Shown: positions 4,902 to 21,466 of the stretch, piece after piece
Layout of the letters: every line of letters begins with the position of its first letter
How positions within the stretch are numbered: position 1 is the first letter of the stretch
Assembly (NCBI GenBank): GCA_002699205.1
Contig: PABT01000040.1
Location: 139,774-203,773, forward strand
Source: Allomuricauda sp.
Lineage (GTDB): Bacteria > Bacteroidota > Bacteroidia > Flavobacteriales > Flavobacteriaceae
Direction of reading: 5' to 3'
Length of the DNA stretch: 64,000 nt
The notes under the pieces: generated by a model
What the model was told of the DNA's origin: nothing
Seen by the model: the letters and a program-made list of their open reading frames with translations, nothing else
Databases searched by the model: none
Made by a program: the position numbers and the translations under genes

Positions 4902-4971
4902 CCATTGGTCTATACCAAACTTTCTTTCGACCATCGATTGGATTTTAAAAGTGATTGAATATGTTATTTTG
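4902..4971 (+). promoter_or_regulatory. Putative LytTR direct-repeat site and -7 element for the signalling operon
   Basis: CCATTGGTCTATAC at 4902; second half-site core TTCGAC at 4926 (+21); TTATTTTG at 4964 (+38), the same spacing as at 11.2 and 12.9 kb. Confidence 0.55.
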
Positions 4972-4992
4972 TTTATCCATAAATTCTGAAAT

Positions 4993-5394
4993 ATGTACAT
5001 TTTATTTATAGAGGACGATGCCATAGAGACCATGAAGTTTCAACGAACTCTTGGCAAATTGGAATCCAAACATACCCTTATTGAAGCAAAAAATGGGGAG
5101 GAAGCGTTGGAGTACCTGGAATCTGGCAAACCATTGCCCGACATTATTTTATTGGATCTCAATATGCCCAGAATGAACGGGATTGAGTTTTTGGGGATTT
5201 TAAAGCAGCACGACAAAATAAAATACCTGCCCACCGTTGTACTCACAACATCCGAGAACAGGGACGATTTGCTGGAATGTTATAAGATCGGTATTGCAGG
5301 ATATGTCATTAAACCCCTTAAATATGAGGATTACGAGGCAAAACTTAAAATTGTCTTGGAATATTGGAGCCTCAATGAACTGGTGAAGGCTTAG
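4993..5394 (+). CDS. Single-domain response regulator (Rcp1-like receiver)
   Basis: EDD, LLDLNMP phospho-Asp, LTTS, YVIKP; no output domain. Confidence 0.93.
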   Translation: MYILFIEDDAIETMKFQRTLGKLESKHTLIEAKNGEEALEYLESGKPLPDIILLDLNMPRMNGIEFLGILKQHDKIKYLPTVVLTTSENRDDLLECYKIGIAGYVIKPLKYEDYEAKLKIVLEYWSLNELVKA

Positions 5395-5446
5395 TTATAA
5401 AAACGGCGTTTCACAACAAAACTTACTTGCTGGGTAAATGTTTTCC

Positions 5447-5454
5447 TACTTTTG
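5447..5454 (+). promoter_or_regulatory. Bacteroidota -7 element upstream of the H-NOX gene
   Basis: TACTTTTG matches TAnnTTTG, 17 nt before the ATG at 5472; -33 element not convincing. Confidence 0.4.
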
Positions 5455-5471
5455 AAACTTATAAGCAGATT

Positions 5472-6017
5472 ATGAAAGGAATAGTATTTACCGAGTTTTT
5501 GGAGATGGTCGAAGACCAATTTGGATTGGAGACCGTTGATGCCATTATTGAAGCCTCCGATTTACCGTCAGAGGGCATATATACCTCTGTAGGAACGTAT
5601 GAGTTCAATGAAATGGTGGCATTGCTTCAAAGTTTAAGTCAAAAGACCAATATTTCCATAGATGATCTATTGTACGCTTTTGGTCATTATCTTTTTGTGA
5701 GTTTGGGAAAAGCACATCCCGAAGTGATCAAAAGTTATAATTCACCCATCGGTTTGCTATACTCCATAGAAGACCATATCCATGTTCACGTGCAGAAGCT
5801 TTATCCGGAAGCGGAACTGCCAACCTTTAACATCTTGGATAAAACAGATACATCAATTTCCATGGTGTACATCTCCTCAAGAGGACTTTATCGTTTGGCT
5901 CACGGACTTATTGAAAAATGTTTTGAACATTTCAATACCTCTTCCAAGGTTTCCTTTGAATTACTGAAAGAGGATGGAACCGAAGTCAAATTTGATGTTG
6001 TACAGAATGGGGAATGA
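5472..6017 (+). CDS. hnoX: H-NOX / heme-NO-binding protein
   Basis: MKGIVF N-terminus, YTSVGTY, proximal His in IHVHVQKLYP, P in ELPTF, heme-binding YxSxR (YISSR), GLIE. Confidence 0.93.
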   Translation: MKGIVFTEFLEMVEDQFGLETVDAIIEASDLPSEGIYTSVGTYEFNEMVALLQSLSQKTNISIDDLLYAFGHYLFVSLGKAHPEVIKSYNSPIGLLYSIEDHIHVHVQKLYPEAELPTFNILDKTDTSISMVYISSRGLYRLAHGLIEKCFEHFNTSSKVSFELLKEDGTEVKFDVVQNGE

Positions 6018-8040
6018 TGAAGTTGCTGTCTTAAAAAGAGCGTTGGAACGCCAAAAAAAGGCCAGGGCCCAAGCCGAAAAAATATTGGAGGAAAAATCCA
6101 AGGAACTATATGATACGGCACAGCATTTGAAAAGTGCAAATGCAAGGCTCGAAAACTTATTGGACGAGAAGTCGGATGAAGTCGATGCGGCTTTTATAAA
6201 TATTATAGATCCATACGTAGTGATGGATTTGGAGTTCAATGTAATTCGCTGTAACGAGTCGGCAAAGGAGTTTTTACAGTTTGACTACAGGAATACGTTG
6301 GTCAACCTATCTGGTTTCGTGCACCCCGAATTTGCGCAGTACACCACCGAGTCATTGCAAACACTTTTGGATACCGGAATGTTAAAAAATTACCGTGCCA
6401 AAATCATTCTTCCCGATGGCAGTGAAAAATTTGTGCAGATCAATGCAAGTCTTATCTACGATCGAAAACGATCTCCCATTGCCGCTCAAGGTATTATCAG
6501 GGACATTACCCAAGAAAAGAATATTGAAAACCTGCTCGGAAAGCAACGTGGCAAATTAAAAGAGTCCGAAAATAGATTGGCCACCTTGATAAAGAACATG
6601 GAAATGGCCGTACTGCTCGAAGATGAAAACAGAAACATAGCGCTTACCAACAAGAAGTTCTGTGAAATGTACGGGTTGCCCGCCAAGCCAGAAGATATGG
6701 TTGGAATGGATTGTGGGTGTTCGGCGGAGAAAACCCAGGACTATTATAAAAACCCTGACCGTTTTGTGGAACGTATAGAAGAAATTCTGGAAAACCGCGA
6801 ACCCGTGCTGTCCGATGAATTGGAAATGGTGGATGGCAGAATTTTGGAACGTGATTACATACCTGTCATCAGTGATGGGATCTACAAAGGCCATTTGTGG
6901 AGTTATCGGGATGTTACGCTCAACAGGACCTTTAAACGAAACCTTCAAGCAGAGAAAGATAAATACAGTGGAATTATTGCAAACATGAACCTTGGGCTGA
7001 TAGAGGTGAGCCTCGATGGTCACATTCAGACCGTCAATCAAAGTTTTTGTACTATGAGTGGGTTTGAAATGGGAGAACTTTTGGGCCATACCGTTCAAGG
7101 TTTGAGAACTACCAACAATGTTCCGGTAGTGGCCAGTAAAGACCTTCTACAATTAAAAGAGGGACAAGATTCCCATGAAATGGTGGTCTTTGACAAAATG
7201 GGCGAAAATCGGCATTGGCTGGTAAGTTCGGCGCCTCGTTTTGATGAAGCCCAACGGATGATCGGTTCGATAGGAATCCATTTGGATATAACGGAACATA
7301 AAAAGTTACAGCTCGAAAAGGAAAAATTGTTGGTCAAACTGGAACAAAGTAATGAAGGCCTTAAGGAATATGCCTATGTAGTGTCACACGACCTGAAGTC
7401 TCCGTTGCGGAGCATTGAGGCGTTGGCCAGTTGGTTGAGGAACGACTACAGCGATAAATTGGATGATGCGGGCAAAGAGTATATCGGCATGATCCAGGAC
7501 AAGATAGAATCCATGGAGAACCTTATCAGCGGGATACTGGAATACTCCACGGCAAATACCTCCGAATTGAACAATACCGAAATGAATTTACATGAGGTGG
7601 TTTCCGAAATAGTGGATAGTATTTATATACCGGAAAATGTAAAAGTAATAGTCCCGAAAAGATTGCCACAAATAATTGCGGACAGGACAAAGGTGCGACA
7701 ATTGTTCCAAAACATTATTTCCAATGCGGTGGTCCATATAGAAAAAGAGAATGGTAAGGTAGAGGTCCTTTATCAAGAGGAACCCGATTATTGGGAGTTT
7801 TGTATAAAGGACAATGGAGTGGGCATCCCAAAAAAATATCACAAGAAAATTTTTGAAATTTTCCAATCAGCTTCAAACGTTAAAAAATCAACAGGAATTG
7901 GACTTTCCATAGTAAAAAAGATCATAGACCGATACAATGGTAGGGTATGGGTGGAAAGTGAAGAAGGAAAAGGAACCGATTTTTACTTTACTATTGAAAA
8001 ACCAACCTTGAAAACCAATATCAATGAAAGAAACCCCTAA
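6007..8040 (+). CDS. Cytoplasmic 3xPAS sensor histidine kinase (HnoK-like)
   Basis: N-terminal coil LERQKKARAQAEKILEEKSKELY typical of H-NOX-partner kinases; three PAS/PAC units; H-box SHDLKSPL; DNGVGIP and STGIGLSI boxes; no TM helix; overlaps the H-NOX stop. Confidence 0.92.
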   Translation: MGNDEVAVLKRALERQKKARAQAEKILEEKSKELYDTAQHLKSANARLENLLDEKSDEVDAAFINIIDPYVVMDLEFNVIRCNESAKEFLQFDYRNTLVNLSGFVHPEFAQYTTESLQTLLDTGMLKNYRAKIILPDGSEKFVQINASLIYDRKRSPIAAQGIIRDITQEKNIENLLGKQRGKLKESENRLATLIKNMEMAVLLEDENRNIALTNKKFCEMYGLPAKPEDMVGMDCGCSAEKTQDYYKNPDRFVERIEEILENREPVLSDELEMVDGRILERDYIPVISDGIYKGHLWSYRDVTLNRTFKRNLQAEKDKYSGIIANMNLGLIEVSLDGHIQTVNQSFCTMSGFEMGELLGHTVQGLRTTNNVPVVASKDLLQLKEGQDSHEMVVFDKMGENRHWLVSSAPRFDEAQRMIGSIGIHLDITEHKKLQLEKEKLLVKLEQSNEGLKEYAYVVSHDLKSPLRSIEALASWLRNDYSDKLDDAGKEYIGMIQDKIESMENLISGILEYSTANTSELNNTEMNLHEVVSEIVDSIYIPENVKVIVPKRLPQIIADRTKVRQLFQNIISNAVVHIEKENGKVEVLYQEEPDYWEFCIKDNGVGIPKKYHKKIFEIFQSASNVKKSTGIGLSIVKKIIDRYNGRVWVESEEGKGTDFYFTIEKPTLKTNINERNP

Positions 8041-8344
8041 TCTTGAATACGTGGACAAGCTTGCCGAAGGCGATGAAGCCTTTCGTCAAAAGTTTATTGC
8101 TATATTAAAAGAGGAACTTCCTAAGGAGAAAATTGAATATCATGATACCATAAAAAGTTCCTTGTTACAAGAAGCATCTGAGCATGTACACAAGATTAAG
8201 CACAAACTAAACGTTCTAGGTATGCATAATGCCTACACCATGGCAGTACAGCACGAAAATGAACTGCGAAACGGAGAACAATCGTTTAAAGAAGAATTTT
8301 TGTCGATACTCAACGATGTAGAGCATTACCTAAAAACCATTTGA
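8024..8344 (+). CDS. Hpt (histidine phosphotransfer) protein
   Basis: LEYVDKLAEGDEAFRQKFIAI...EHVHKIKHKLNVLG; helical Hpt pattern with conserved His. Confidence 0.8.
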   Translation: MKETPNLEYVDKLAEGDEAFRQKFIAILKEELPKEKIEYHDTIKSSLLQEASEHVHKIKHKLNVLGMHNAYTMAVQHENELRNGEQSFKEEFLSILNDVEHYLKTI

Positions 8345-8346
8345 TA

Positions 8347-9057
8347 ATGAATTGTATAATAGTTGATGACGAGGCCGCTGCAAGAGCAATTGTATCACAA
8401 TTATGCTCAAAAGTACCTGAGATAAACATCATGGATGAGTTTGATAGCGCAATCGATGCCATCAAATTTCTAAATCAATATAAAGTAGATGTTATTTTCT
8501 TGGACATCCATATGCCCGGATTTACTGGAATTGATTTTATCCAGACCCTTAAGAATCCTCCCAAAATAGTAATGACCACCTCAGATACCGATTTTGCCAT
8601 TGCATCATACGAATATGAGGCCATTGTAGATTATTTGGTAAAGCCAATTACGCATGAGCGATTTCAGAAATGTGTTCAAAAGGTGAAGAACAGCTCGGTT
8701 GCCAAACCACAAGCAGATGCTTCGGAAGAACAGGAAAATGCCTCGGGAGAAGACCTCTATATAAATATAGACCGTAGACTCATTAAACTTAAATACGCAG
8801 AAATACTGCTTATTGAGGCCAAAGGGGATTACATCAACATAAAAACGGAAACCAAAGATTATTTGGTGCATACCACATTAAAGAAAATCTTGGAAAAACT
8901 ACCAGAAGATAGGTTTTTGCAGATTCACCGATCGTTCGTGATCAATTTCAATAAAATAATCGATATTGAGGATAACAGTGTCCTGATCGAGAAAAGTGTG
9001 GTTCCCATTAGTAGATCCAACCGCCCGGAGTTAATGAGACGATTGAATCTTCTCTGA
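8347..9057 (+). CDS. LytTR-family DNA-binding response regulator
   Basis: VDDE, FLDIHMP, YLVKP; LytTR domain IEAKGDYI...FLQIHRSFVIN...PISRS. Confidence 0.95.
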   Translation: MNCIIVDDEAAARAIVSQLCSKVPEINIMDEFDSAIDAIKFLNQYKVDVIFLDIHMPGFTGIDFIQTLKNPPKIVMTTSDTDFAIASYEYEAIVDYLVKPITHERFQKCVQKVKNSSVAKPQADASEEQENASGEDLYINIDRRLIKLKYAEILLIEAKGDYINIKTETKDYLVHTTLKKILEKLPEDRFLQIHRSFVINFNKIIDIEDNSVLIEKSVVPISRSNRPELMRRLNLL

Positions 9058-9081
9058 TTCCCTCCTTTTTTGCTAATTACC

Positions 9082-11136
9082 TTACTTATTTGTAGAAAAT
9101 AACGGCTGCTTTTTAAGCAACCATTTGATTTGTATCCCCATCTCCGTAAATTGAAATCCAGCTGCCGTAGCAGAGGCAATATTACTGTACTTTCCATATA
9201 AGCCACCCATCAACCGTTTGGAGAACTGATGTTTTATATTCGCTTCTGCCCTAAATATAGAAGTTATGGCATCATCTTCAACTTGTTGTAGTCCTGTTGC
9301 CGCATTGATGCTATAAGTGGATTTGTTACCGAATTTTCCAGCTAGTTCCGCAAAAAACTCACCAACTTGGTACTTTTCTGGGCTAAAATAGATGGTGGGC
9401 ACTTGCTCCGCAAAGGCCAAAAATTGGTAATTAAGCCCAAATTTCAATGTTGGTTTTCTTAAAGCAGTAAAGTACAATGAAGTAAACAACAGTTCACGCT
9501 GATTTTCATCACTCTGTTCCGTATGCATCAATTGTGTGTACCAACCTAATCCAAAGTTGGAGCCTATGTTGTAGTTCAAACCATAATGGTTCATCACGAT
9601 TTCTCGTTCAATCAAATCGGTATTAAAATTTTGCACCTCCCGCTGATAACCCACTTCCAAATTTTGCAAACGGTATGGCTCAGTAACCAATTTGGCATGC
9701 AAAATGGGTTGCGTATAACCATTACCATCAAATTGAGCGTTGTTCAATCCAGCCACTCCAACTACTTTAAGCTTGGGTAACATGGCATAAGTGATTCCTG
9801 CCGTTGCCGTATGTGTATGTGCCTTGGCTGTGGTTTCAGAATTTTCGGTAAGGCGGTACTGATAATTAAAAGTGGACTGTAGTTTGGTTGAAAATGGCAG
9901 GTTTACTGTAGTATTGGAAGCATAGGCCAAATTATTTCCATTATCAAAACTATAAGATACTTGCTCCTGAATCGTTGGACTATAAATGCCATTCATTTTT
10001 TCGAGCAGACCTTTGGCATCTTTTTGATTTTCAAAAATATCCAAGGTTTTATAGGTGGCTACATAAGCCTCATCAATTTTTCCACGGGCAAAAAGAGCGT
10101 TGGCCTTGCCCAAATTCCCATCAAACGAAATACTGTCCGTCTCCAGAATTGTATCATAATGCTTTAAACTGCTTTTAATGTTGCCCGTATACATACCCAG
10201 GGTTGCTTTTAGAGCGGACATCCAGTTACCATCCCCATAGGAGTTGGATAAGCTATCGATATAATTTCTGGCCTGTACAAATTTTCTGTTCCAGATTAAG
10301 GCTTGGGCATAGCGCTCGTAAGTTCTTTCTCTTAGTTTAATATCATCAACAGTATTGACCTTGCTTTTTGCAGTTAATGCAACCTTAAGAGCTTCTTTGT
10401 CATCTTCCCCAATATGTTCGGCAAGGGCTATACCGTTCAATGCCACAATGGAATCCTTTTTGTTTACGGCCAATGTTCTATACGTTGCTTTGGCACTGTC
10501 CACCTCTTTAGTGATCAAATAAATATTGGCAAGATTGAGCAGGGTTTCCTTATCATTTGGGAAATCACTGAAAATAGATGTCAATTTACTTTTGGCGTTA
10601 TCATAATTCTGGTTTTTCATTAAGGTATTGGCCAATCCCAAATTCATATACTTTTTAGAGGTAAGAGCACTTGGGTTTCCGGGTTCAATAGCCAATGCTT
10701 TATCAATCCAAACCAAAGCCGCATCATATTTTTGAAGATTACTGAGTGTGTTCGCATATCCTAGAACTGCGCCAAATTTGTTTGGATAATCTTCTACAAG
10801 TCCTGCGTACATCTTTTCAGCCTCCGTATAGCGTTTTCCCCATAAAAATGATTCATAATAATTGATACGTACCTCATAATCATCGGGGTTCTCTTCCATC
10901 ATACCATTAAATAAGGTATTGGCTTTGTTCGGGTTACCGTTTAGTCCCACAGCACGACCGTAGCATATCTGGGCCGTTTTATTATTGGGGTTGTCTTTAA
11001 GGAAATCACCAAAGAAGTTTTCTGCTTTAGAAAAGTCTCCATTTTCCAAAAGTTGGAAACCAGCATCCATAGAGGACTGTGCAAAAATGCCATAAGAGGC
11101 GAGTATTAAAATGACGGTGTTGACAAAGCGTTTCAT
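9082..11136 (-). CDS. Secreted TPR-repeat protein with C-terminal outer-membrane beta-barrel
   Basis: Signal peptide; about 380 aa of TPR-like helices (e.g. YDAALVWIDKALAIEPGN); about 290 aa of alternating amphipathic strands (FNYQYR, LGWYTQ, FGLNYQF, MGIQIKW). Confidence 0.75.
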   Translation of the reverse strand: MKRFVNTVILILASYGIFAQSSMDAGFQLLENGDFSKAENFFGDFLKDNPNNKTAQICYGRAVGLNGNPNKANTLFNGMMEENPDDYEVRINYYESFLWGKRYTEAEKMYAGLVEDYPNKFGAVLGYANTLSNLQKYDAALVWIDKALAIEPGNPSALTSKKYMNLGLANTLMKNQNYDNAKSKLTSIFSDFPNDKETLLNLANIYLITKEVDSAKATYRTLAVNKKDSIVALNGIALAEHIGEDDKEALKVALTAKSKVNTVDDIKLRERTYERYAQALIWNRKFVQARNYIDSLSNSYGDGNWMSALKATLGMYTGNIKSSLKHYDTILETDSISFDGNLGKANALFARGKIDEAYVATYKTLDIFENQKDAKGLLEKMNGIYSPTIQEQVSYSFDNGNNLAYASNTTVNLPFSTKLQSTFNYQYRLTENSETTAKAHTHTATAGITYAMLPKLKVVGVAGLNNAQFDGNGYTQPILHAKLVTEPYRLQNLEVGYQREVQNFNTDLIEREIVMNHYGLNYNIGSNFGLGWYTQLMHTEQSDENQRELLFTSLYFTALRKPTLKFGLNYQFLAFAEQVPTIYFSPEKYQVGEFFAELAGKFGNKSTYSINAATGLQQVEDDAITSIFRAEANIKHQFSKRLMGGLYGKYSNIASATAAGFQFTEMGIQIKWLLKKQPLFSTNK

Positions 11137-11209
11137 AGGTTAAGCTTTAAGGTTTTTTTGATGATGTAAAGTTAAAACGGGTGTAGCCACAGCGGAAGGG
11201 CGAACTATT

Positions 11210-11279
11210 CCATTCATCTACAGCAATATGCAATCCATCTACACCGACCATTTTAAGACGTCAAACAAGTGGATATTTG
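11210..11279 (+). promoter_or_regulatory. Putative LytTR direct-repeat site and -7 element (STAS-flippase operon)
   Basis: CCATTCATCTACAG (11210) and CAATCCATCTACAC (11231), period 21; GATATTTG at 11272. Confidence 0.75.
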
Positions 11280-11321
11280 TCCTAACAAGTCGAATAATAT
11301 TAACCTTATAATCTAAAAATC

Positions 11322-11600
11322 ATGGCTTTACAAATCACAGAATCTAGAAGGGTTTTTTCTGTAAATGGTAACTTGAACAGTGCCAATATCAAAATATTTG
11401 AAAGACACATGAGGAATTTTATTAAGCGTGGTGCCATCGTTGTATTGGATTTGCAAAAGGTGACCCAAATAGATGATTTGGCCGGTAAGGCATTGATTCA
11501 AATGTTTGCGAACGCCCTTATTTTGGATTGTCAATTCACTATTAAAGGAGGAGTTCCAAAAAACCTTATGCATGAACTATGCTTGGAAGCTAAGCTTTAA
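11322..11600 (+). CDS. STAS-domain protein (anti-anti-sigma-like)
   Basis: 92 aa; VNGNLNSAN...VVLDLQKVTQIDDLAG STAS pattern. Confidence 0.75.
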   Translation: MALQITESRRVFSVNGNLNSANIKIFERHMRNFIKRGAIVVLDLQKVTQIDDLAGKALIQMFANALILDCQFTIKGGVPKNLMHELCLEAKL

Positions 11601-11611
11601 TCCACTACGTT

Positions 11612-12841
11612 ATGACAGCATTAAACCTTGTAATAAAACGAGTTTCTCCCCAACAACTTTTTATGTTGAGTGCCTTATTGGTAAATGGAGGTAATTATAT
11701 ATATAACTTAATTCTTGGCCGTATTCTTGGCCCAGAAGCTTTTGCAGATGCAGCGCTACTTGTGACCCTATTATTGATTCTTTCCTTTTTGGGGATGACG
11801 TTCCAGTTGGTGACCGCAAAATTTATTGCCGCATTGCCAACACAACAATGGGAGCCATTTAGAAATAAAATTGGTGTTTTTGCGCTTTTAGTAGGATCCT
11901 TGTTGGGAGCTGTGGTGTTTTTTGCCGCACCTTTTCTTCAAAATATGTTGCATACTGAAAATGTTCTCATGTTCCGAATTTTTGGAATTGGGGTGCCATT
12001 TTACTTCGTGATGAGTGTAAATAGGGGGCAGTACCAAGGAGAAGAAGCCTTTGGAAAATTATCCATGTCATACCAATTGGAGATGTGGGGACGATTGGTG
12101 ATTACGTTTTTGGCTTTTGTGTTGATTCGTGACCACTTTGGAGCCTTGGTGTCCCTTGGAATTGTAGCCTCGTTGGCATTGGGATTGTTTCCTTTCAAAA
12201 AGTTGCGTTTTAATGTAGTCAAGACCGAGTCCACAGGTTTGGAATGGAACAAAGTTCGAACTTTTATGTTGATCACTGCCTGTTACGAACTTACCCAAAT
12301 CATTATCAACAATAGTGATATCATATTAGTGAAGCACTTTTTTAATGCTCAGGAAGCTGGTCTTTATGCTTCGTTGGCTTTGATAGGGCGTGTGGTCTAC
12401 TTTGTAGCATGGATGTTTGTGATGTTGCTGTTGCCAACAGTGGTGCGTCTAAAGAGAGAAGGTAAACCAACCAAACATGTACTTTTTAAGTATGTGGGAT
12501 ATATCGGGTTGTTGTCCGCAATTATAGTTGGTGCCTGTGTACTTTTCCCCAAATTGATCATCACCATGCTTTTTGGAGAGGCCTATATTTCCATGTCATC
12601 ATTGTTATGGCAATACGCTTTGGCAACCTCGATGTTTTCCATAGCCAACATTTTTACATATTACTTTTTATCCCTAGATCATTATAGGCCAATATGGTTT
12701 TCGGCCATTGCAGGGATATTACAAATTACTTTAATCGTTTTTCTCCATGGTAGTTTGGCCATTATTGTCCAAACACAGATTTTGGTTATGGCATCATTGC
12801 TCATATTTCAATTTCTTTATTTTTTCTCTAGGGAGAAGTGA
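11612..12841 (+). CDS. Oligosaccharide/polysaccharide flippase (Wzx/MOP superfamily)
   Basis: About 12 TM helices; NYIYNLILGRILGPEAF; NNSDIILVKHFFNAQEAGLYA. Confidence 0.88.
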   Translation: MTALNLVIKRVSPQQLFMLSALLVNGGNYIYNLILGRILGPEAFADAALLVTLLLILSFLGMTFQLVTAKFIAALPTQQWEPFRNKIGVFALLVGSLLGAVVFFAAPFLQNMLHTENVLMFRIFGIGVPFYFVMSVNRGQYQGEEAFGKLSMSYQLEMWGRLVITFLAFVLIRDHFGALVSLGIVASLALGLFPFKKLRFNVVKTESTGLEWNKVRTFMLITACYELTQIIINNSDIILVKHFFNAQEAGLYASLALIGRVVYFVAWMFVMLLLPTVVRLKREGKPTKHVLFKYVGYIGLLSAIIVGACVLFPKLIITMLFGEAYISMSSLLWQYALATSMFSIANIFTYYFLSLDHYRPIWFSAIAGILQITLIVFLHGSLAIIVQTQILVMASLLIFQFLYFFSREK

Positions 12842-12868
12842 TACATTTTTGGGTTTTTTAGATAGGTG

Positions 12869-13006: not shown

Positions 13007-13034
13007 TATCAACAAAACAAGTAAACTTAACCTT

Positions 13035-14270: not shown

Positions 14271-14288
14271 GTTTTTAGGTTGAGTGTG

Positions 14289-14322
14289 AAAAGGGGGGTG
14301 ACTATTTTAGTTGTCCCCTTTT
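14289..14322. terminator. Bidirectional terminator between convergent GT4 and GH genes
   Basis: AAAAGGGGGGTGACTATTTTAGTTGTCCCCTTTT. Confidence 0.6.
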
Positions 14323-15839
14323 CTTTTTGTAGTAACCTCCCCGTATGCAGGTTTTCGGTTGCCATCGGAATCTATAAGGCCATAATGCTTTTGAGGAGCC
14401 CTTCGCCAAGGTTTTCGACCTACGACTTGCGTTGGTACAGTTCCAAAATCATGCAAGGTCCACATAAAATAAGGGAGCTGCTCTTTGGACAATACTTTCT
14501 GCATTTTATTATAATAGGCCGCTTGAGAATTTTCTGAATTGGTGAACAAATTCCATACACAGCTGTAGCTGGACTTTCCATATTCCCCTAAAACCAAAGG
14601 TTTATGCCCTACAGCATCCTTCAATACCAAAAAACGATCCATTAAATGTTCAGGAGCCTCATAATAGTGGAAAGAAACAAAATCCACGGTTTTTACCAAG
14701 TTAACAGCAGCTTCAGGCGTAGCCCAACCAATGGTTACGGGATGTAAACCATCAATCTTTTTAATCTGTGCTGCCATTTCGGACAACCAGTTCAATACAT
14801 TGTTCTTGCCCCGAGATTCAAAATCCAAATCTGGTTCGTTTTTAATATCCCAACCTAGTAGAGCTTTATGAGTTTTTAAATGGGAAACAATAGTTTCGGC
14901 ATGTCTATGGGTCAGTGTCCAGTCTAAAATGTCATAATTACCATAAAAATCAAAAAGGGTGACCAAAACTTTGAGCTCATGTTCCGCTGCTATATCCAAT
15001 AATTTCGATAATTGTTGGAGGTATTCATCCTTAACGTTAGCTTTCCCAAAAGTTTCGTACGGTACAAAAACACGAACCGTATTTAATCCCATGTTATGTA
15101 TCGTTTCAAAATCATCAGAGATCGGAGAAGCATCAAAATGGTTCCCGAACATATCCCATGGATGGTCTTTTGGGTAATAGTTGATTCCTTTCCAACTTTT
15201 GGCGTTGAATGTAATCTCTTCGGCTTGCTTTTCATGGATAGTGGTGGTGGGCAGTTTTACCATTTGACGGATTCTCCAAAACCCATCTTCCAACAATAGA
15301 ATCACTTTATAGGAACTTATTGTTTTTTGTTGGTGCAACAGTTCTCCGGAAGCATATATTTTTTCAAACTGAGATACATTTTTATCCGTGAGCACGGCAA
15401 GTTTGCCATCCAAACTGTAAAATTCAAGCTTAGGCTCGTGCGATAGGGTAGTGGTCTCTATTGTAATAGCGTTGTCTTGGTTGTTTTTGATCAAGGCATG
15501 TATTTGGGACCGGGCATCCTGGGTGTAATAATCCTCAACGCCCAAATGATTGTAAGAGTTAAGGGCAATGCTCTTAACATACCAAGCGTTCACATAGTCT
15601 TTCTCTAGTTCGCCAAGTGCCTGATCGGAAATTTTTCTACCCCGTTGTTCTTTTAAATCCCAAGTAATCTTGGGTTGGTACGCTTTTTCAATGGCTCCGC
15701 CAATATGAAGAATGGTAGATTTATCGGCACCAGTGTTCAAAAAACTCCAAGCAGCAGCCAATCCATAAATAATCCCGGCATTTATGGCCAAAAAGCTCAA
15801 AAGGAGCAAAGCACGGTATGTGTTTTTCTTTACCATCAT
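14307..15839 (-). CDS. Membrane-anchored clan GH-A (GH5-like) glycoside hydrolase
   Basis: N-terminal TM helix; KGINYYP, GLNTVRVF, WDIKNEP (acid/base), SFHYY, VLGEYG (nucleophile), WTLHD. Confidence 0.85.
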   Translation of the reverse strand: MMVKKNTYRALLLLSFLAINAGIIYGLAAAWSFLNTGADKSTILHIGGAIEKAYQPKITWDLKEQRGRKISDQALGELEKDYVNAWYVKSIALNSYNHLGVEDYYTQDARSQIHALIKNNQDNAITIETTTLSHEPKLEFYSLDGKLAVLTDKNVSQFEKIYASGELLHQQKTISSYKVILLLEDGFWRIRQMVKLPTTTIHEKQAEEITFNAKSWKGINYYPKDHPWDMFGNHFDASPISDDFETIHNMGLNTVRVFVPYETFGKANVKDEYLQQLSKLLDIAAEHELKVLVTLFDFYGNYDILDWTLTHRHAETIVSHLKTHKALLGWDIKNEPDLDFESRGKNNVLNWLSEMAAQIKKIDGLHPVTIGWATPEAAVNLVKTVDFVSFHYYEAPEHLMDRFLVLKDAVGHKPLVLGEYGKSSYSCVWNLFTNSENSQAAYYNKMQKVLSKEQLPYFMWTLHDFGTVPTQVVGRKPWRRAPQKHYGLIDSDGNRKPAYGEVTTKRKGDN

Positions 15840-17056
15840 TTTGGAGTGCCCTGGATTGTTTTAGTGATACCGGCTACCGTTGTTGTTAAGATAATCTCAT
15901 CTACGTTGATGCTGTTGGGTACAATAAAGGTCCCCATACCTTTTCTAGAGCTGGTGTTGAAGGTTCGTATGGTTTGTCCTTCGAATGTTTTGATATCCAA
16001 CCTCATATTCATGCCATCTGGTACCCACTGGTTCATGTAGCTTAGAATGGGGCCAACAGTAATTGTTTTGCCATCCTTGGCCATATGGATAGCGTAATCC
16101 AAGACTGCAGCTTCAAAATCCAGTTCCAAAAGATTGCTTATGGATGTGCCGCTGATGTTCGCATTTACCTTCCAATGGCTCGGTACCTCTGGATGCAACA
16201 TTTTCCCCTCGGCCATACCATTTAGGGTTTGTCCATAGGTTTGATATTGGTTTCCAGAGTTGTCTTTGATTATAAAATTGACCAAAGTGCCGTCCGCAAC
16301 CATATTCCCGTGCACATCGTTTATGGTAGACGTTTTAAAGGAAACAATCTGGTTGCCATCCGCAAAACGGTGCTGTCTGTCCATTTGTATGATAAAATCA
16401 TCCGCTCTTGTGGGTAGCACATTCACGGTAAATTCTTTGGAAACTTGTTTTTCTAAGGTGGTGGTGATAAAAATGTCACCAACTTTTTTTCTAGCTCCAA
16501 CGTAATCGTGGGCAATCAAGTCTAGTAGTTCAATTGGACTGCTTTGTTGTTCTTCCTTGAATTTTTCGGTCAGATTTAGTTTTGTGCCTTCTGGTAATGG
16601 GTTCCCAAATTCATCTTGTGGTAATGTAACCACCATAGATCGGTCCTTGTTGTCCGCAAAAATGCTGGTAGGCCCAATGTACGTTTCCATCTCTTTTGAT
16701 GAATTGTGGCTTGGAAGTATGTTGAGGTCCCCCTCAGACATTATGGAGCTATTAGATATCAATTTCCAATGGGCCTCCCCACTTTTTTGAGCAACGGATG
16801 TGGGCAGAGTAAAAGACAATTGTATTTCGGTAGTATCCGGTTGAAGGCCAAATGTCCCCCACGCATTTTGAATCAAGAGTATTTGATTGCTGGGTTTTCC
16901 ATCAAACCGTAGGTTTATGGCTTCGCCAGCAACAAACTCCTTTTGTTTGGTCAATAGATCAATAGGCTTTGGTACTGAAGCGGTCTCTGTATCCACTGAA
17001 TTGGAACAACCAGCAAGTGCCAAACAAAAAATCCATATGTAATAATATAGTTTCAT
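15836..17056 (-). CDS. Lipoprotein with repeated Ig-like (Big_1/invasin-like) domains
   Basis: Lipobox LAGC; three related motifs DEFGNPLPEGT, DVHGNMVADGT, YMNQWVPDGM; ATGA overlap with the GH gene. Confidence 0.7.
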   Translation of the reverse strand: MKLYYYIWIFCLALAGCSNSVDTETASVPKPIDLLTKQKEFVAGEAINLRFDGKPSNQILLIQNAWGTFGLQPDTTEIQLSFTLPTSVAQKSGEAHWKLISNSSIMSEGDLNILPSHNSSKEMETYIGPTSIFADNKDRSMVVTLPQDEFGNPLPEGTKLNLTEKFKEEQQSSPIELLDLIAHDYVGARKKVGDIFITTTLEKQVSKEFTVNVLPTRADDFIIQMDRQHRFADGNQIVSFKTSTINDVHGNMVADGTLVNFIIKDNSGNQYQTYGQTLNGMAEGKMLHPEVPSHWKVNANISGTSISNLLELDFEAAVLDYAIHMAKDGKTITVGPILSYMNQWVPDGMNMRLDIKTFEGQTIRTFNTSSRKGMGTFIVPNSINVDEIILTTTVAGITKTIQGTPK

Positions 17057-20000
17057 TTATTTGGGGTTGCCTATATAATTGTTCAATTCAATTTGAAAAT
17101 ACGTATAGCCTTTGCCTGTATAAGGTTTCATCATTTCCCATTTTAAATCCTCGTTTCTTTCACCAAAATAGCTGTTTGAAATATCAGAGTTCGGCATGCC
17201 GTTCACATAACAATTGTCCAGTCCATCAGCTATAATCTCCAAGTTGGTCAAATCCCTCATGGTAATTTCGAAAGACTGTTTTCGCTGAATTCGAATACCA
17301 TCCAGCGTAAAATGATGCTCCACCCATAAAAGTTCACCTTCTTCTGTGTAATATGAAGTCAAAACCTGTGGAATGGTTACTTCTTGGGCGCCATAGTTGA
17401 AAAGCGTTCCCTTTAAAAAATCTTGCTCCAGTGTCCATTCTTGCAGGGCGACCGATTTATATAAATCTGTAGTGGCCACATTTCCGGCACATTGTAGATC
17501 AAAGGTAACAGGTTGTTCATCGAGACTGATAGGGGTAAACTGGTCTGGATTAAAAGTTGGCGGCAAAGTATCTTTGGTGGATGACCATGCAATTCCTTCA
17601 AAATCTACTCGAAACGTAGTGGTTTCCTTGGGCATTAATTTATGCTTTGCATGAAATTTAGCATCGTATTGTGCCAATTGTGTATTGTTCTTATTGTACA
17701 GGGTGCCTTTTATGGAGACATCTGCAGGTACATTATCAATATTCTGAAGTTTTCCAATAATACTGTAGCTTCCTTGATACTTTACCAATTTGGCGGATAA
17801 AACCTCTAAAAGTGGTTGCCGCAGAATATCCTCATGATAGGTTTGCTGGGTGGTTATACGCCTACGTCCATGGTTGTAATACTGGGTTTTGTTGGAGGTT
17901 ATCAACTGGTTGGGCGGAATATCGGCATCCACTTTTTTGGGTTTGATATACCATCTGCCTTTCTTTTTGACCAACGTGTGTTGATACGATCTGTCCACTT
18001 TTTCCAGTGGGGTAATCCATTTGGTGTCCACTTGCATCTCCACAGAACTCTCGGATTTTTTTTGGACAGTGATTCCCATGGAATCCAATTTGGCATAAGA
18101 ACTCAATAATCCATCTGTTACCGAAACTTCCAACATATATTGGGAGAGGTCTACGTTTTCATCGGGGTCAAGATAGGAGTGTGCTCTTTCAAATTCTTTA
18201 AAATCCAAGGCGTCATAATAGGCTTTTACCACATTTTCGGCACTTATTTGGCTGGCATTGTCCAGATAGAAATGATAAATTCCGAAAATAAAAATCCCAA
18301 TTACCGCTATGGCCCAAGCTCCATTGATCAAGGAAAGCCCTTTGGAGATTCCGTTAAACTTTGGGGCATGTAAAAAATAGTCATCCGTTTTTTGGGAATG
18401 TCCTTTTAATTTTTTGTACCACGGTACTTGAATATTGATAATGAATGCCAAAATCAAAGTTCCCACGGGAATCAATCCCCACATCAATTTTAAAAAATTA
18501 GGGACATCGTCTTTGGGAATTACTTTGGGCAACGGAGAAATATTGAGCCGCTCCCATACCATAATGCCATTTTCCAGTTGCTGTAGCCGTTGCCATCCGC
18601 AGAAATAGAGGATAGGGTCGTAAAACTTATCGTTGGAAAAAATATATTTTAAATTGTATTTCTCGGGAACGGTTAAAAACTGTTGTAGGGACCCAATTCC
18701 TTCAACCCCTCTAAATTTTGAATTTTCCAATCGTTCAATGGCTCTAGTGGTCAGTTCGGGAAGCCTCCTTGCCGAGTGGTAATTGCCATCAACGGTCATG
18801 GCATTGGTTTGTGCGGAAAGCCATGCCATTTGATCTCCAAAACCAAGCGGTAGATATCGCCATTTATCGTGCTGATCCTGGTTCAAAAAATTAACGATCG
18901 GCAGCATATTGATTTTCTGGGGTTGCGATGGCCTAAAATAATTTAAGCTCATGGTAAATATGGCGACCACAATAAAAGAAATTCCCAGACCACCGGCCAA
19001 TACGTAGTGCAATGGTTTTTTAAAAGCTTTTAGCAATTGTTCACGTATATCGCCCTCTACCAAACGATAAACAAATTCCCCGAAAATGGGTAATGACATT
19101 ATGGTGGCCCAAAGTGTGAACCGGTCCAAAGTGAGGATGTTAAAGGCAGTATCTCCAAGTAACATTTTTGGCAGGGGAGTGGTGCCTCCCGTTCCCAATA
19201 AGGTCAACATGGAAAACGAGAGTCCAAAAAATAATAGCCTTTTACTATAAAAACGATAGAAAAAATATGGTAAAATGAACAACAGTATTCCCCAAGGTAT
19301 CAAGAAAAAGACCAGACCGGAGGAGGTGACTTCCAGAAAATTGTCCCTAGAGCCATGTGGAATAGGAACCTGTGTAATCGGGTTTTTCTTGGAGTTGATC
19401 CAATAGGGCAGAATACAGAACACAATGGCAACCAAAGATCCTCCGCCAAAAATGACAATGCGCCAGAACAATCTTTTGAATTGCTGAAAGAATACTTTAA
19501 AGGTAATCCGGGTGTTTATTTGTACCGCTTCTTTGGCGGCGTCCATGATCACCAGTCCGATAAGTGGAAAGATAAAGAAGATCATCCCAAAAATAGGGGT
19601 AACGTGGTGGGAGGCCACGGTGACCGCAATCATGGAAAGCGAAGAAAGTAATTTAAACTTTCTCCCTGTTTTTATCCAACTGTAAATTTCTGGTAGTGCA
19701 TGCAGAAGAATGGAAATCCCCATTAAACTGGGCAGTTGGCCAAATATGTGCAAAGTCTCCAAGAACATGGATGAAAAAGCAGCGAGTAGCGCTGTATATC
19801 CAGCAATTTTAGTATTTGCCGTAATGACCAACGCAAAACGATATGCCCCGGTTATGAACAATGCTATAATAAGGAGTGCCATGGTGAACATCCCGAACTT
19901 TAATCCACCGATGTACGAAAGCAGGGCAATGCATTGATGCACCAGTGGGGGATAGCCCTGTACCGTAAATCCAGTGTACCAGCGGTAATCCCATGGTTCG

Positions 20001-20152
20001 AACCAACTGTTGGCATAGTGGTCGGCAAAGAAAAGGTGTATGAGCGCATCATAGGTGGATTCCAAAGTAAAAAAGATGGTTGCCCCATGAAAAATAAGCC
20101 CAAAAACCAGCGCAATTGCCAGTGTTATGTTGGTTTGTTTTTGCATTAACAT
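17057..20152 (-). CDS. GT-C-fold membrane glycosyltransferase (YfhO/PTPS-related type) with large periplasmic C-terminus
   Basis: TYDALIHLFFADHY...WDYRWYTG...GYPPL loop after TM1; about 13 TM helices; C-terminal NTF2-like segment (AENVVKAYYDAL) and FxLYD/Ig-like segments (GKLQNIDNVPADVSIKGTLYN). Confidence 0.72.
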   Translation of the reverse strand: MLMQKQTNITLAIALVFGLIFHGATIFFTLESTYDALIHLFFADHYANSWFEPWDYRWYTGFTVQGYPPLVHQCIALLSYIGGLKFGMFTMALLIIALFITGAYRFALVITANTKIAGYTALLAAFSSMFLETLHIFGQLPSLMGISILLHALPEIYSWIKTGRKFKLLSSLSMIAVTVASHHVTPIFGMIFFIFPLIGLVIMDAAKEAVQINTRITFKVFFQQFKRLFWRIVIFGGGSLVAIVFCILPYWINSKKNPITQVPIPHGSRDNFLEVTSSGLVFFLIPWGILLFILPYFFYRFYSKRLLFFGLSFSMLTLLGTGGTTPLPKMLLGDTAFNILTLDRFTLWATIMSLPIFGEFVYRLVEGDIREQLLKAFKKPLHYVLAGGLGISFIVVAIFTMSLNYFRPSQPQKINMLPIVNFLNQDQHDKWRYLPLGFGDQMAWLSAQTNAMTVDGNYHSARRLPELTTRAIERLENSKFRGVEGIGSLQQFLTVPEKYNLKYIFSNDKFYDPILYFCGWQRLQQLENGIMVWERLNISPLPKVIPKDDVPNFLKLMWGLIPVGTLILAFIINIQVPWYKKLKGHSQKTDDYFLHAPKFNGISKGLSLINGAWAIAVIGIFIFGIYHFYLDNASQISAENVVKAYYDALDFKEFERAHSYLDPDENVDLSQYMLEVSVTDGLLSSYAKLDSMGITVQKKSESSVEMQVDTKWITPLEKVDRSYQHTLVKKKGRWYIKPKKVDADIPPNQLITSNKTQYYNHGRRRITTQQTYHEDILRQPLLEVLSAKLVKYQGSYSIIGKLQNIDNVPADVSIKGTLYNKNNTQLAQYDAKFHAKHKLMPKETTTFRVDFEGIAWSSTKDTLPPTFNPDQFTPISLDEQPVTFDLQCAGNVATTDLYKSVALQEWTLEQDFLKGTLFNYGAQEVTIPQVLTSYYTEEGELLWVEHHFTLDGIRIQRKQSFEITMRDLTNLEIIADGLDNCYVNGMPNSDISNSYFGERNEDLKWEMMKPYTGKGYTYFQIELNNYIGNPK

Positions 20153-20206
20153 CTGTCAGAAAATATAACAGAATAAAGGTCTGAATATTGTTATAAAACC
20201 AATGAA

Positions 20207-20273
20207 CTATTCATCGCTTCGGTTTAACCATTCGTCTACACTTAATTGATTTCCAACTTTTTTGAGCTATTTG
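20207..20273 (+). promoter_or_regulatory. Putative LytTR direct-repeat site (receiver-GT2 gene)
   Basis: TTCATC at 20210 and CCATTCGTCTACAC at 20228 (core 20231, +21); GCTATTTG at 20266 (+35); an exact TAGATTTG also at 20290. Confidence 0.68.
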
Positions 20274-20332
20274 GGACAGCAATGTGGGGTAGATTTGCTT
20301 CAAATATTGTTCAAAAACGTAAACCTTAACCT

Positions 20333-21466
20333 ATGAAAATTTTAGCAATTGATGATCAGCAGTTGATACTGCTTTCTGTACAAAGAAAACTTAAAGAGAT
20401 TGGCTATTTGGTAAAAACGGCCGCCACAGGACAACAAGGCATCGAGATTTATAAAGAATTTACGCCAGATTTGGTAATCATGGACATGAACATGCCTGAG
20501 ATGAATGGATTGGAGGTGATTAGCCAACTTAGAGATATTGACTTGAACACACCTATTATGGTGATGTCAGGTAACAACGATGAAAATGTGATTCTTAATG
20601 GATTTGAATTGGGCATTGTTGATTATATGAAAAAACCCATTGGCCTAGATGAAATGGTGGCCAGGGTGAAACGAACCATTGGACCTCCAATTTTGGAGAA
20701 ACAATCAGTTAAAAAAGAAACCCAAATCATACAAAAGAACTGCGTTGGCGTTGTAATTCCGTGTTATAATGAAGAAGACCGATTGAGTGGCAAGGAGTTT
20801 CAGGATTTTGCGAGGCGTCATCCAGGGTACCACCTATGTTTTGTAAATGACGGCAGTACGGACAATACATTGCAGGTACTTGAAGAAATCAGAAAAGGAA
20901 ACGAAGATAGCATCAGCGTGTACAATTGTGAGCAAAATGGAGGCAAGGCAGAAGCCGTACGACAAGGAATCCTTCACTTGGCAAAAGATGGACAGTTCGA
21001 TTATATGGGGTATTTGGATGCGGACCTTTCTACCGATTTTACTGATTTTGATGAATTGGTACGAACCATTGAAGGTTCAAAGTTTGATATTGTCAGTGGT
21101 TCAAGAATTAGCAGAATGGGTGCTGATATTACTAAGGAATCAGCAAGAAAAATTATTAGTAAAACCATTAACTGGATCATTCAGAAAATTCTTGGAATGC
21201 CTTTCAAGGACACTCAATGTGGTGCCAAAGTAATGCGACCAAGTACTGTGGCATCCGTTTTCGAAACGCCTTTTAAAACGAGATGGTTGTTTGATGTGGA
21301 AATTTTTATCAGAATGCGAAAGATGTATGGGAAAGAAAAAGCGACCGCTTTAATTTGTGAGCAGCCTCTAAAAAGATGGATTCACGCCGATGGTTCAAAA
21401 TTATCCATGAAAGATTCCATAAAAATTATTTGGCAATTGGGACAGTTGTCGATTATGTATAGGTAG
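20333..21466 (+). CDS. Receiver domain fused to GT2 polyprenyl-phosphate glycosyltransferase (DPG/DPM-synthase-like)
   Basis: REC: IDD, IMDMNMP, VMSG, MKKP. GT2: VVIPCYNEE, VNDGSTD, NGGKAEAVRQG, YLDADLS, DTQCGAK, WLFDVE. Confidence 0.9.
   Translation: MKILAIDDQQLILLSVQRKLKEIGYLVKTAATGQQGIEIYKEFTPDLVIMDMNMPEMNGLEVISQLRDIDLNTPIMVMSGNNDENVILNGFELGIVDYMKKPIGLDEMVARVKRTIGPPILEKQSVKKETQIIQKNCVGVVIPCYNEEDRLSGKEFQDFARRHPGYHLCFVNDGSTDNTLQVLEEIRKGNEDSISVYNCEQNGGKAEAVRQGILHLAKDGQFDYMGYLDADLSTDFTDFDELVRTIEGSKFDIVSGSRISRMGADITKESARKIISKTINWIIQKILGMPFKDTQCGAKVMRPSTVASVFETPFKTRWLFDVEIFIRMRKMYGKEKATALICEQPLKRWIHADGSKLSMKDSIKIIWQLGQLSIMYR

Follow-up and report, generated by a model that had tools for sequence, protein, structure and literature searches.

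A conserved gene cluster joining a putative H-NOX phosphorelay to candidate surface-glycan genes in Flavobacteriaceae

What might a haem-based gas sensor control in a bacterium whose genome shows no sign of cyclic di-GMP (c-di-GMP) synthesis? The question is raised by a 64,000-nucleotide stretch of DNA from Allomuricauda sp., family Flavobacteriaceae (assembly GCA_002699205.1, contig PABT01000040.1, positions 139,774 to 203,773), which is called the window throughout. Between window positions 4902 and 21466 (~16.5 kb), 13 open reading frames (ORFs) form a cluster of two halves. One half is a five-gene relay built around an H-NOX sensor, and the other comprises eight genes whose products resemble proteins of glycan assembly and export. 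A first-pass annotation, made from the letters of the window, had marked out this region as a candidate system, an H-NOX phosphorelay wired to a surface-glycan locus. Re-examination of its ORFs and domains with Pfam and NCBIfam scans recovered all 13 genes in place, with the domains that had been assigned to them (Table 1).

We consider it fairly probable that this conserved cluster allows a haem H-NOX protein, most likely a sensor of nitric oxide (NO), to control an envelope or extracellular glycan by phosphoryl transfer and not by c-di-GMP. The domain searches agree with the absence of c-di-GMP enzymes reported for the window at first pass, within their scope. No GGDEF, EAL or HD-GYP domain occurs in the 23 ORFs between positions 3715 and 25011, the part of the window scanned for EAL and HD-GYP. 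The genome-wide search, which was confined to GGDEF, found no such domain in the whole 95%-complete assembly.

Linkage of the two halves and a shared operator

The association of relay and glycan genes was followed through 401 genomes from 302 genera of the same family. The gene for a 1031-residue (1031-aa) membrane protein of the glycan half is present in 96 of these genomes, spread over 79 genera, at 52-90% identity, and the H-NOX gene is present in 140. Both genes occur in 91 of the 96 carriers (Fisher p 5e-47, uncorrected for phylogeny). In 77 of these 91 double carriers they lie at most 40 kb apart on one contig, with a median distance of 15 kb; two random single-copy genes would fall that close ~2% of the time. 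Their orientation is also kept, being opposite in 74 of the 77 linked genomes. In one further genome the linkage spans the origin of a circular chromosome, and the remaining unlinked cases are mostly fragmented assemblies. The two halves are therefore linked in most relatives; their separation in most relatives, which the first-pass annotation had named as grounds for refutation, is not what the genomes show.

Gene order is conserved along with proximity. The succession of relay, tetratricopeptide-repeat (TPR) gene, STAS-PST-GT4 unit, hydrolase-lipoprotein-GT-C unit and REC-GT2 gene was traced by tblastn mapping in 15 genera. Among 64 full-length named loci, the glycan module is near-invariant: REC-GT2 was found in 63, the Ig-like lipoprotein and the glycoside hydrolase (GH) in 62 each, the family 4 glycosyltransferase (GT4) in 60, the PST-family protein in 59 and the TPR protein in 50. 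These loci come from Flagellimonas/Allomuricauda, Maribacter, Cellulophaga, Zobellia, Aquimarina, Kordia, Tenacibaculum, Polaribacter, Flavobacterium and other genera. A compact, rearranged form (our genomes G310 and G121) places REC, H-NOX and kinase genes directly against those for the family 2 glycosyltransferase (GT2) and the GT-C protein. Within the source genus itself the distribution is patchy, with the module in two of the 25 congeners first sampled and in one more from the family sample; the closest named relative is Flagellimonas chongwuensis, at 93% identity. The link between relay and glycan genes is real and old. Retention of neighbourhood and orientation over 79 genera would be hard to explain without a functional connection.

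A second line of evidence comes from the promoters. The 13-bp sequence CCATTCRTCTACA occurs three times in the 4.47-Mb assembly, each time inside the cluster, against 0.3 copies expected and none for the reversed control. The less strict CCATTNNTCTAYA has five exact copies in the window, four of them intergenic and all four on the plus strand, at the starts of the operators listed in Table 1. When up to one mismatch is allowed, the window contains 12 matches where 2.8 would be expected, nine of the 12 being in the cluster, and a relaxed pattern yields 15 matches genome-wide, five of them in the cluster. The spacing from operator to start codon is regular: the three strict copies and one variant stand 91-112 nt before the four genes REC, STAS, GT4 and REC-GT2. 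A second copy follows 21 bp downstream in each case. That at 11231 is strong, while those of the remaining operators are weaker. With its core CCATTCGTC and its tandem CCATTCGTCTACA-like 13-mers, the operator has the form of LytTR-type direct repeats with a period of ~21 bp. Its first nine bases agree with the AlgR core CCGTTCGTC at eight of nine positions, and at nine of nine in one relative. The direct-repeat motif assigned at first pass to promoters of both halves has thus become four operators, one before the relay operon and three at glycan promoters.

The operator is conserved beyond the source genome. Many genera have clear tandem 13-mers, again 21 bp apart, in front of the relay operon, for example CCATTCGTCGACA-N8-CCATTCGTCGACA in L057, and the motif recurs at orthologous glycan promoters in other genera, including upstream of GT4; none was found in shuffled loci. 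At the divergent promoter between the GT-C and REC-GT2 genes it is present, within one mismatch, in 24 of the 64 named loci. In two genera (genomes G332 and G055), both the LytTR gene and the motif are missing from the H-NOX/glycan cluster. Both genomes encode a 72%-identical LytTR ortholog elsewhere, beside a REC paralog and preceded by a tandem site (L071 in G332, 9412-10911; L072 in G055, 8958-12029). Because the motif stands at relay and glycan promoters, is conserved and travels with the LytTR ortholog, the LytTR regulator of the cluster most likely binds it, autoregulates its own operon and co-regulates the glycan genes. Transcriptional wiring of the two halves, proposed at first pass, is supported at the cis level.

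Some details of operator distribution stand apart from this argument. A simple rule, that loci lacking a nearby LytTR gene also lack the motif, did not hold throughout: in the compact loci L042 and L043 the tandem site is retained although LytTR is 6-10 kb away. Behind the relocated LytTR gene and REC paralog of G055 come a second operator and a PST-like gene. In the source genome, single good variants of the operator outside the cluster, CCATTCATCTATA and CCATTGGTCTACA at G000:C9:42240-42252 and G000:C11:127272-127284, mark possible additional members of the regulon.

The relay also exists without the GT-C module, in 49 genomes, from which 20 loci were sampled. In ten of the 20, the LytTR gene is followed by STAS, a single REC and REC-Bac_transf, a receiver-fused priming phosphoglycosyl transferase, with an OEP-like gene in nine of the ten. 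In the one such locus that was followed further, from a genome of the source genus (G006; L050 and L070), Wzx, Wzy, several glycosyltransferases, a UDP-sugar dehydrogenase and an epimerase come next; Wzx is present in one more locus. This architecture was also seen at L051, L053-L056, L058, L059, L067 and L068, and a GT2 gene stands after STAS in G006 and a congener. A minimal form in another genome of the same genus (G015; L052, 9152-13702) consists of the relay and STAS, with an operator before each. Twice, then, the relay has been combined with a receiver fused to an enzyme that loads the lipid carrier, GT2 in one architecture and Bac_transf in the other. Their gene content presents the relay as a portable regulator of surface-glycan loci. 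In the alternative architecture, the relay often carries an extra FIST protein and a second kinase. The minimal form of G015 is followed by unrelated genes, for an outer-membrane protein barrel, DUF4270, Kelch and DUF4907 proteins.

Table 1. Genes, operators and adjoining genes of the cluster, in window coordinates (TM, transmembrane)
Feature	Position	Strand	Basis or placement
Single-domain receiver REC (CheY-like), first relay gene	4993-5394	+	Pfam Response_reg 75.8 bits
H-NOX haem sensor	5427-6017	+	Pfam HNOB 137.1 bits, cut-off 25.5
Histidine kinase, cytoplasmic, HnoK/HahK-like	5974-8040	+	3 PAS, HisKA, HATPase_c; no predicted TM helix
Probable stand-alone Hpt, 106 aa	8024-8344	+	Pfam Hpt sub-threshold; HKIKHKLNVLG motif
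REC-LytTR response regulator	8341-9057	+	Pfam REC and LytTR; nearest NCBIfam models BtsR, LytR
TPR protein, signal peptide, ~300-aa C-terminal domain, probable outer-membrane beta-barrel	9082-11136	-	TPR families
Small STAS protein	11322-11600	+	Pfam STAS
Polysacc_synt (PST/Wzx-like) multi-TM protein, putative flippase	11612-12841	+	PF01943 E 2.7e-10; at least 8-9 hydrophobic segments
GT4, cytoplasmic, GT-B fold	12972-14270	+	Pfam Glyco_trans_1_4, Glycos_transf_1; 56-77% identity across genera
Clan GH-A TIM-barrel hydrolase-like protein, membrane-anchored or secreted	14307-15839	-	Weak Glyco_hydro_2_C, DUF4434; N-terminal hydrophobic segment
Lipoprotein, LAGC lipobox	15836-17056	-	Weak Ig-like similarity (invasin D3 / Big_1)
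1031-aa GT-C-fold membrane protein	17057-20152	-	Predicted structure; no Pfam/PDB sequence match
REC-GT2 fusion, no TM helix	20333-21466	+	Pfam REC 97.8 bits, Glycos_transf_2 77.5 bits
Operator CCATTGGTCTATA, degenerate second copy 21 bp downstream	4902-4935	+	91 nt before REC start, relay operon
Tandem operator CCATTCATCTACA-N8-CAATCCATCTACA	11210-11243	+	112 nt before STAS; 74 nt before divergent TPR
Operator CCATTCATCTACA, partial second copy	12937-12970	+	98 nt before probable GT4 start 13035
Operator CCATTCGTCTACA, weak second copy	20228-20261	+	105 nt before REC-GT2; 76 nt before divergent GT-C gene
Small EF-hand protein	21604-21942	-	Adjoins cluster
DUF6515 protein	21958-22503	-	Adjoins cluster
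LytS-type sensor (7TMR-DISM/His_kinase)	22732-24270	-	Directly after cluster
REC-LytTR regulator	24274-25011	-	Directly after cluster

Two start codons should probably be moved, that of H-NOX to 5472 (MKGIVFTEF) and that of GT4 to 13035. The GT-C, lipoprotein and GH genes form one minus-strand operon, in which the lipoprotein gene always lies between the other two. The adjoining LytS/LytTR pair, the DUF6515 and EF-hand genes and the AraC gene were rejected as parts of the system, since they are not conserved with the cluster; the LytS/LytTR pair, for instance, is near it in one of the 64 named loci.

Sensor, relay and glycan proteins

The sensor has both expected H-NOX motifs, HIHVHV with its His and YISSR of the YxSxR haem-propionate type. 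A PDB sequence search found it 63% identical over its full length to entries 6BDD and 6BDE, which other papers assign to the H-NOX protein of Kordia algicida described by Hespen et al. 2018. In a Kordia genome, an H-NOX gene whose product is 84% identical lies ~12 kb from the GT-C gene, and the crystallised protein therefore derives from the same cassette. The study is reported to have shown that this protein binds NO and regulates its cognate kinase. The arrangement of H-NOX and GT-C genes is canonical in Zobellia, Cellulophaga and Tenacibaculum. Next in the PDB search come the H-NOX proteins of Shewanella woodyi and S. oneidensis, which sense NO (together with Kordia, E-values run from 1e-62 to 1e-23), and the O2-binding H-NOX of Caldanaerobacter is distant, at E 2e-5. 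In the PDB copy searched, the Kordia entries carry the label '2,4-dihydroxyhept-2-ene-1,7-dioic acid aldolase', a misnomer by which the only solved flavobacterial H-NOX escapes searches by name.

The kinase and the three receivers, namely the single-domain REC and those of the LytTR and GT2 proteins, are clear by domain search. REC is always paired with H-NOX in the relatives. The probable Hpt protein has an H-K-I-K-H motif, and its ORF is conserved in relatives at 38-62% identity. In many genera, a FIST protein and a further kinase are inserted among the relay genes.

On the glycan side, the largest protein is also the least recognisable. The 1031-aa protein gave nothing above threshold in Pfam, NCBIfam and PDB sequence or profile searches. 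A full-length AlphaFold model from a 29-sequence alignment reached a pLDDT of 63, and Foldseek matched its C-terminal NTF2-like and beta-sandwich domains only. It was replaced by a second model of residues 1-640, based on a 56-sequence alignment that included distant relatives, which reached a pLDDT of 91.1 and a pTM of 0.90. The top 28 Foldseek matches of this model in the PDB are all GT-C proteins (STT3, AglB, PglB, DPY19, ArnT, AftA/B/D, EmbA/B/C and ALG6/9). Their E-values go down to 7e-8 and their TM-scores range from 0.30 to 0.53, with at least 0.41 for the top 22. Weak but recurrent matches to PF10131 (PTPS_related) were obtained for 15 of 29 orthologs (best E 0.0026) and for two of ten distant relatives. 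In the 56 sequences, D35 is at least 90% conserved, H39 invariant and H45 near-invariant. All three follow the first TM helix, where the catalytic acids of GT-C enzymes lie, D35 and H39 being in extracytoplasmic loop 1.

The protein divides into a GT-C module (residues 1-635) and a C-terminal part (residues 638-1031). The latter, ~400 aa encoded at 17057-18240, begins with an NTF2-like domain resembling the N-terminal domain of PBP2a/PBP5 and continues into beta-sandwiches. A search with residues 1-400 against 1.84 billion representative proteins returned 585 related clusters at 50% identity; many GT-C relatives are 560-600 aa long, without the C-terminal extension. Judged by its modelled fold, the 1031-aa protein is a GT-C enzyme of an undescribed and uncurated family, and the GT-C assignment of the first pass holds.

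The companion enzyme, REC-GT2, had been described at first pass as a polyprenyl-phosphate-sugar synthase with its own receiver, and its GT2 domain is indeed nearest to proteins of that kind. The best PDB matches are GtrB sll0501 (E 4.5e-9), ArnC (1.3e-8) and archaeal DPMS (2.8e-5), all of them polyprenyl-phosphate sugar synthases, and the domain carries an LDADL (DxD) motif. The C-terminal TM helices of GtrB and ArnC are missing, with no hydrophobic segment predicted in the sequence. The enzyme would act peripherally, as TM-less enzymes of the DPM1/Ppm1 type do. Its receiver retains the full phospho-acceptor set (DD, D51, S79 and K100), and the fusion is present in 49 of 68 loci.

Both the signal peptide and the TPR array of the TPR protein are clear, the array with matches to PgaA, BcsC and PrsT; a PDB sequence search gave no match. 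The protein is probably an outer-membrane exporter of the BcsC/PgaA/PelB type. The hydrolase has weak matches to GH158 and to GH5 mannanases (E 2e-5). The small STAS protein is retained beside the relay in every architecture seen, whether in the window type, in the Wzx/Wzy type or alone in G015. Partner switching through a conserved phospho-serine was considered as a general feature of STAS and rejected, because only about half of 65 orthologs have Ser or Thr at the position equivalent to that of SpoIIAA and SypA; the window protein has Asp-Leu there. The Asp next to this position is near-invariant (63 of 65).

Two known classes of polysaccharide locus were considered as a home for the cluster. 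Membership of the Wzx/Wzy class was rejected, as there is no priming phosphoglycosyl transferase, Wzy, co-polymerase or Wza-type exporter. The Pel class was rejected as well: Pfam and NCBIfam searches gave no match to PelG, PelD or PelE, and the GT4 and PST proteins match generic families only. Domain scans of the 13 proteins likewise revealed no processive synthase.

A proposed circuit and its rivals

The circuit proposed here builds on the synteny, operator, folds and family resemblances observed directly, from which its signalling and pathway steps are inferred. NO-liganded H-NOX would alter the autophosphorylation of the adjacent kinase. Phosphate would then pass, probably from kinase to REC to Hpt, to two recipients, the LytTR regulator and the receiver of GT2. 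The LytTR regulator would bind the operators and activate its own operon, the STAS-flippase genes, GT4, REC-GT2 and the divergent TPR and GT-C-lipoprotein-GH units. At the enzyme level, the phosphorylated REC of REC-GT2 may gate the first lipid-linked step, the formation of a polyprenyl-phosphate sugar. Where the locus encodes GT2 without a fused receiver, its control may fall in trans to the single-domain REC, in the way that phosphorylated EpsW acts on EpsZ in Myxococcus. REC-GT2 would load the sugar onto polyprenyl phosphate and GT4 may extend it; the PST protein would flip the product, and the GT-C enzyme would transfer or polymerise it in the periplasm. Finally, the GH-A hydrolase may trim the product and the TPR-barrel protein may export it.

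Several observations weigh against this scheme. Three of the window's four operators have a degenerate second half-site, and the motif, exact or with one mismatch, is missing from 22 of the 64 loci. The Hpt protein scores 18.8 bits (E 0.002), below the Pfam cut-off of 24.6. In the compact forms, GT2 is unfused and the Hpt and LytTR genes lie outside the block, ~6-10 kb off. The post-translational arm suggested at first pass may apply to the window, where the fusion is present and its receiver intact, but it is not universal, as the GT2 carries no receiver in 19 of the 68 GT-C loci, among them those of Aquimarina and Dokdonia. The barrel of the TPR protein, likewise part of the original description, is drawn from sub-threshold matches only, all in the C-terminal 300 residues of orthologs: BCSC_C in five of nine (best E 3.6e-5), DUF481 in seven of nine, and OMP_b-brl and Porin_4. 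None of the 13 proteins matches Bac_transf, Wzy_C, Wzz or Poly_export in Pfam, which leaves the chemistry to guesswork; the alternative locus of relatives does contain components of this class. The best fold matches of the GT-C protein are oligosaccharyltransferases, and these would suit protein or lipid glycosylation equally well.

The last point leads to the main rival for the glycan half, which leaves H-NOX control unchanged. Under this alternative, the cluster would carry out a periplasmic glycosylation, similar to that of oligosaccharyltransferases or of ArnT/GtrC, that decorates a protein, a lipid or a surface polymer, the co-transcribed lipoprotein perhaps being the target. The ranking of fold matches, with STT3, AglB and PglB first and DPY19 and ArnT next, speaks for it, as does the trio of GT2, flippase and GT-C enzyme, which mirrors GtrABC and ArnC-ArnT. 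The same trio also mirrors the archaeal logic that leads from AglJ to AglB. The cluster's lack of Wzy, co-polymerase and priming phosphoglycosyl transferase would fit, and so would the lipoprotein, always translationally coupled between GT-C and GH. On the other hand, a BcsC-like TPR-barrel together with a periplasmic glycoside hydrolase is a hallmark of polymer secretion, and the STT3-type WWDYG motif of oligosaccharyltransferases is absent from the 1031-aa sequence. Moreover, the relay without GT-C is attached to a Wzx/Wzy exopolysaccharide locus in G006, and a REC-Bac_transf head recurs in ten of the 20 sampled loci, which suggests that the regulated trait is a polymer. Decoration is a possibility that we take seriously, if a minority one.

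A further claim is that the glycan half represents a new exopolysaccharide route. Such a route would combine a phosphorylation-gated GT2 that makes polyprenyl-monophosphate sugars, a GT-C enzyme as periplasmic polymerase, trimming by the GH-A hydrolase and export through a BcsC-like TPR porin. It would dispense with Wzy, an ABC transporter and a processive synthase, and the H-NOX phosphorelay would replace c-di-GMP receptors. In this full form, the claim is put forward tentatively and must be called doubtful.

A different objection concerns the signal. The sensor may report O2, CO or redox state instead of NO, for example oxygen tension or haem oxidation in aggregates or on algae. The H-NOX family binds NO, CO and in some cases O2; the three PAS domains of the kinase could add redox or small-molecule inputs, and the FIST sensor and second kinase inserted into the relays of many relatives may do the same. 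Against this, the solved structures nearest to the window protein come from NO sensors, those of Kordia and Shewanella, the O2-binding Caldanaerobacter protein being distant, and the residue five positions after the YxSxR arginine is Leu. The O2 binder has its distal Tyr at this position. A signal other than NO appears unlikely.

Least convincing is the proposal that relay and glycan module are conserved neighbours under independent regulation, with LytTR acting mainly on its own operon and STAS and the glycan genes answering to another factor and another kinase, such as the LytS-type sensor next to the cluster. It draws on the loci that lack the motif, on G332 and G055, which keep H-NOX beside the glycan genes without LytTR or motif, on the many other LytTR regulators and kinases of the genome and on the relay-plus-STAS locus of G015, but it is very improbable in view of a 13-mer that stands before the relay operon and three glycan promoters, is confined to the cluster in its strict form CCATTCRTCTACA and co-migrates with the LytTR ortholog, of a LytS/LytTR pair that rarely accompanies the cluster and of a neighbourhood and orientation conserved across 79 genera.

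Relation to known systems

H-NOX/HnoK relays that control biofilm are established in Shewanella and Vibrio. The first-pass annotation had named c-di-GMP enzymes as the outputs of H-NOX relays, which is incomplete: in Vibrio fischeri, HnoX-HahK controls the syp polysaccharide locus by a phosphorelay through SypF (Hpt) and SypG/SypE (PMC12369376). As in that system, an H-NOX protein and its kinase would here control a surface-polysaccharide locus by phosphorelay instead of c-di-GMP enzymes, probably with an Hpt step, and the locus includes a small STAS protein (SypA in V. fischeri). The two systems differ in output, which in V. fischeri consists of the sigma54-dependent SypG and the kinase/phosphatase SypE; the flavobacterial cluster encodes nothing resembling SypE or SypG, and its output regulator is of the LytTR type. 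They also differ in machinery, the syp locus being Wzx/Wzy-like with no receiver-fused enzyme and the present one combining GT2, GT-C and TPR-barrel proteins. The hnoX-hahK genes of V. fischeri presumably lie apart from syp.

The placement of H-NOX beside a cytoplasmic kinase is shared with the HnoX-HnoK systems of Shewanella and Vibrio (HnoB/C/D; HqsK-LuxU-LuxO) and with the Kordia pair. The outputs of the former are c-di-GMP enzymes or quorum-sensing regulators, whereas the present genome has no GGDEF domain. For the Kordia system, as far as the literature search went, sensor and kinase have been studied and no output has been described. The same search found no paper on the locus or on the output of any Bacteroidota H-NOX; the locus thus appears undescribed, as had been suspected at first pass, although its sensor has a crystallised ortholog in Kordia algicida.

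For the enzyme-level arm, the nearest parallel is the Dif pathway of Myxococcus xanthus, where phosphorylated EpsW activates the priming transferase EpsZ (PMC12802240). There, as is proposed here, a phosphorylated receiver acts post-translationally on the enzyme of first sugar transfer to the lipid carrier of an exopolysaccharide pathway. The M. xanthus receiver is a separate protein, its target is a phosphoglycosyl transferase and its sensor differs, whereas the flavobacterial receivers form part of a GtrB/DPMS-like GT2 in the window type of locus and of a Bac_transf enzyme in the Wzx/Wzy type. Receiver-fused small phosphoglycosyl transferases have been noted bioinformatically before (PMC12802240). 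For the transcriptional arm, the AlgZ(FimS)-AlgR system of Pseudomonas aeruginosa offers a LytTR regulator of alginate genes with a CCGTTCGTC-type 9-mer (PMC4064291). AlgR sites are scattered and occur in both orientations, while those described here are tandem, have a 21-bp period and lie upstream of promoters, as in AgrA/ComE-type LytTR systems; the AlgZ(FimS) sensor kinase is unrelated to that of the cluster.

The glycan machinery resembles two kinds of known system. Like GtrA/GtrB/GtrC, ArnC/ArnT and the mycobacterial Ppm1/DPA-Emb/Aft pairs, it would couple polyprenyl-phosphate sugar synthesis by a GT2 to use of that sugar by a GT-C enzyme outside the cytoplasmic membrane. Unlike them, its GT2 is TM-less with a receiver, its GT-C protein is uncurated with a 400-aa extension, and the pair has GT4, PST, hydrolase and putative TPR-barrel exporter genes around it. 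Like the Bcs, Pga, Pel and alginate secretion systems, it includes a putative TPR-plus-barrel exporter, a periplasmic hydrolase and a lipoprotein. With Pel it further shares a GT4 with a PST-family membrane protein and, as proposed, an input signal at the synthesis step. It departs from these systems in lacking a processive BcsA/PgaC-type GT2 synthase, PelD/PelE and a c-di-GMP receptor, and in having a GT-C protein instead.

Set against this background, part of the system is familiar. A route from H-NOX through a phosphorelay to polysaccharide is known from V. fischeri, and Myxococcus provides the precedent for a receiver that controls a priming enzyme. What is new is the family-conserved physical and cis-regulatory coupling, the LytTR output with its operator and the REC-GT2 fusion. 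New, too, are the GT-C family itself, its combination with a putative BcsC-like exporter and the occurrence of the whole in a lineage without c-di-GMP synthesis.

The cluster occurs in about one quarter of the sampled genomes of the family and the relay in about one third. Marine Flavobacteriaceae are major colonisers of algae and particles, and little is known of how they regulate matrix or coat; many are without c-di-GMP synthesis. The system offers a testable circuit, with a defined operator, transcriptional and enzyme-level outputs and a candidate signal in NO, which algae, diatoms and animal hosts make. It also brings to light an uncharacterised GT-C family (the 585 clusters at 50% identity) and natural receiver fusions that form a fused counterpart of EpsW-EpsZ. 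Orthologs are present in culturable Cellulophaga, Maribacter, Zobellia, Kordia and Tenacibaculum. In bacteria that make no c-di-GMP, the relay probably switches the production of slime or coat. If the new exopolysaccharide route outlined above is true as well, an H-NOX phosphorelay would take the role in matrix control that c-di-GMP receptors have in Proteobacteria, in a phylum largely without c-di-GMP.

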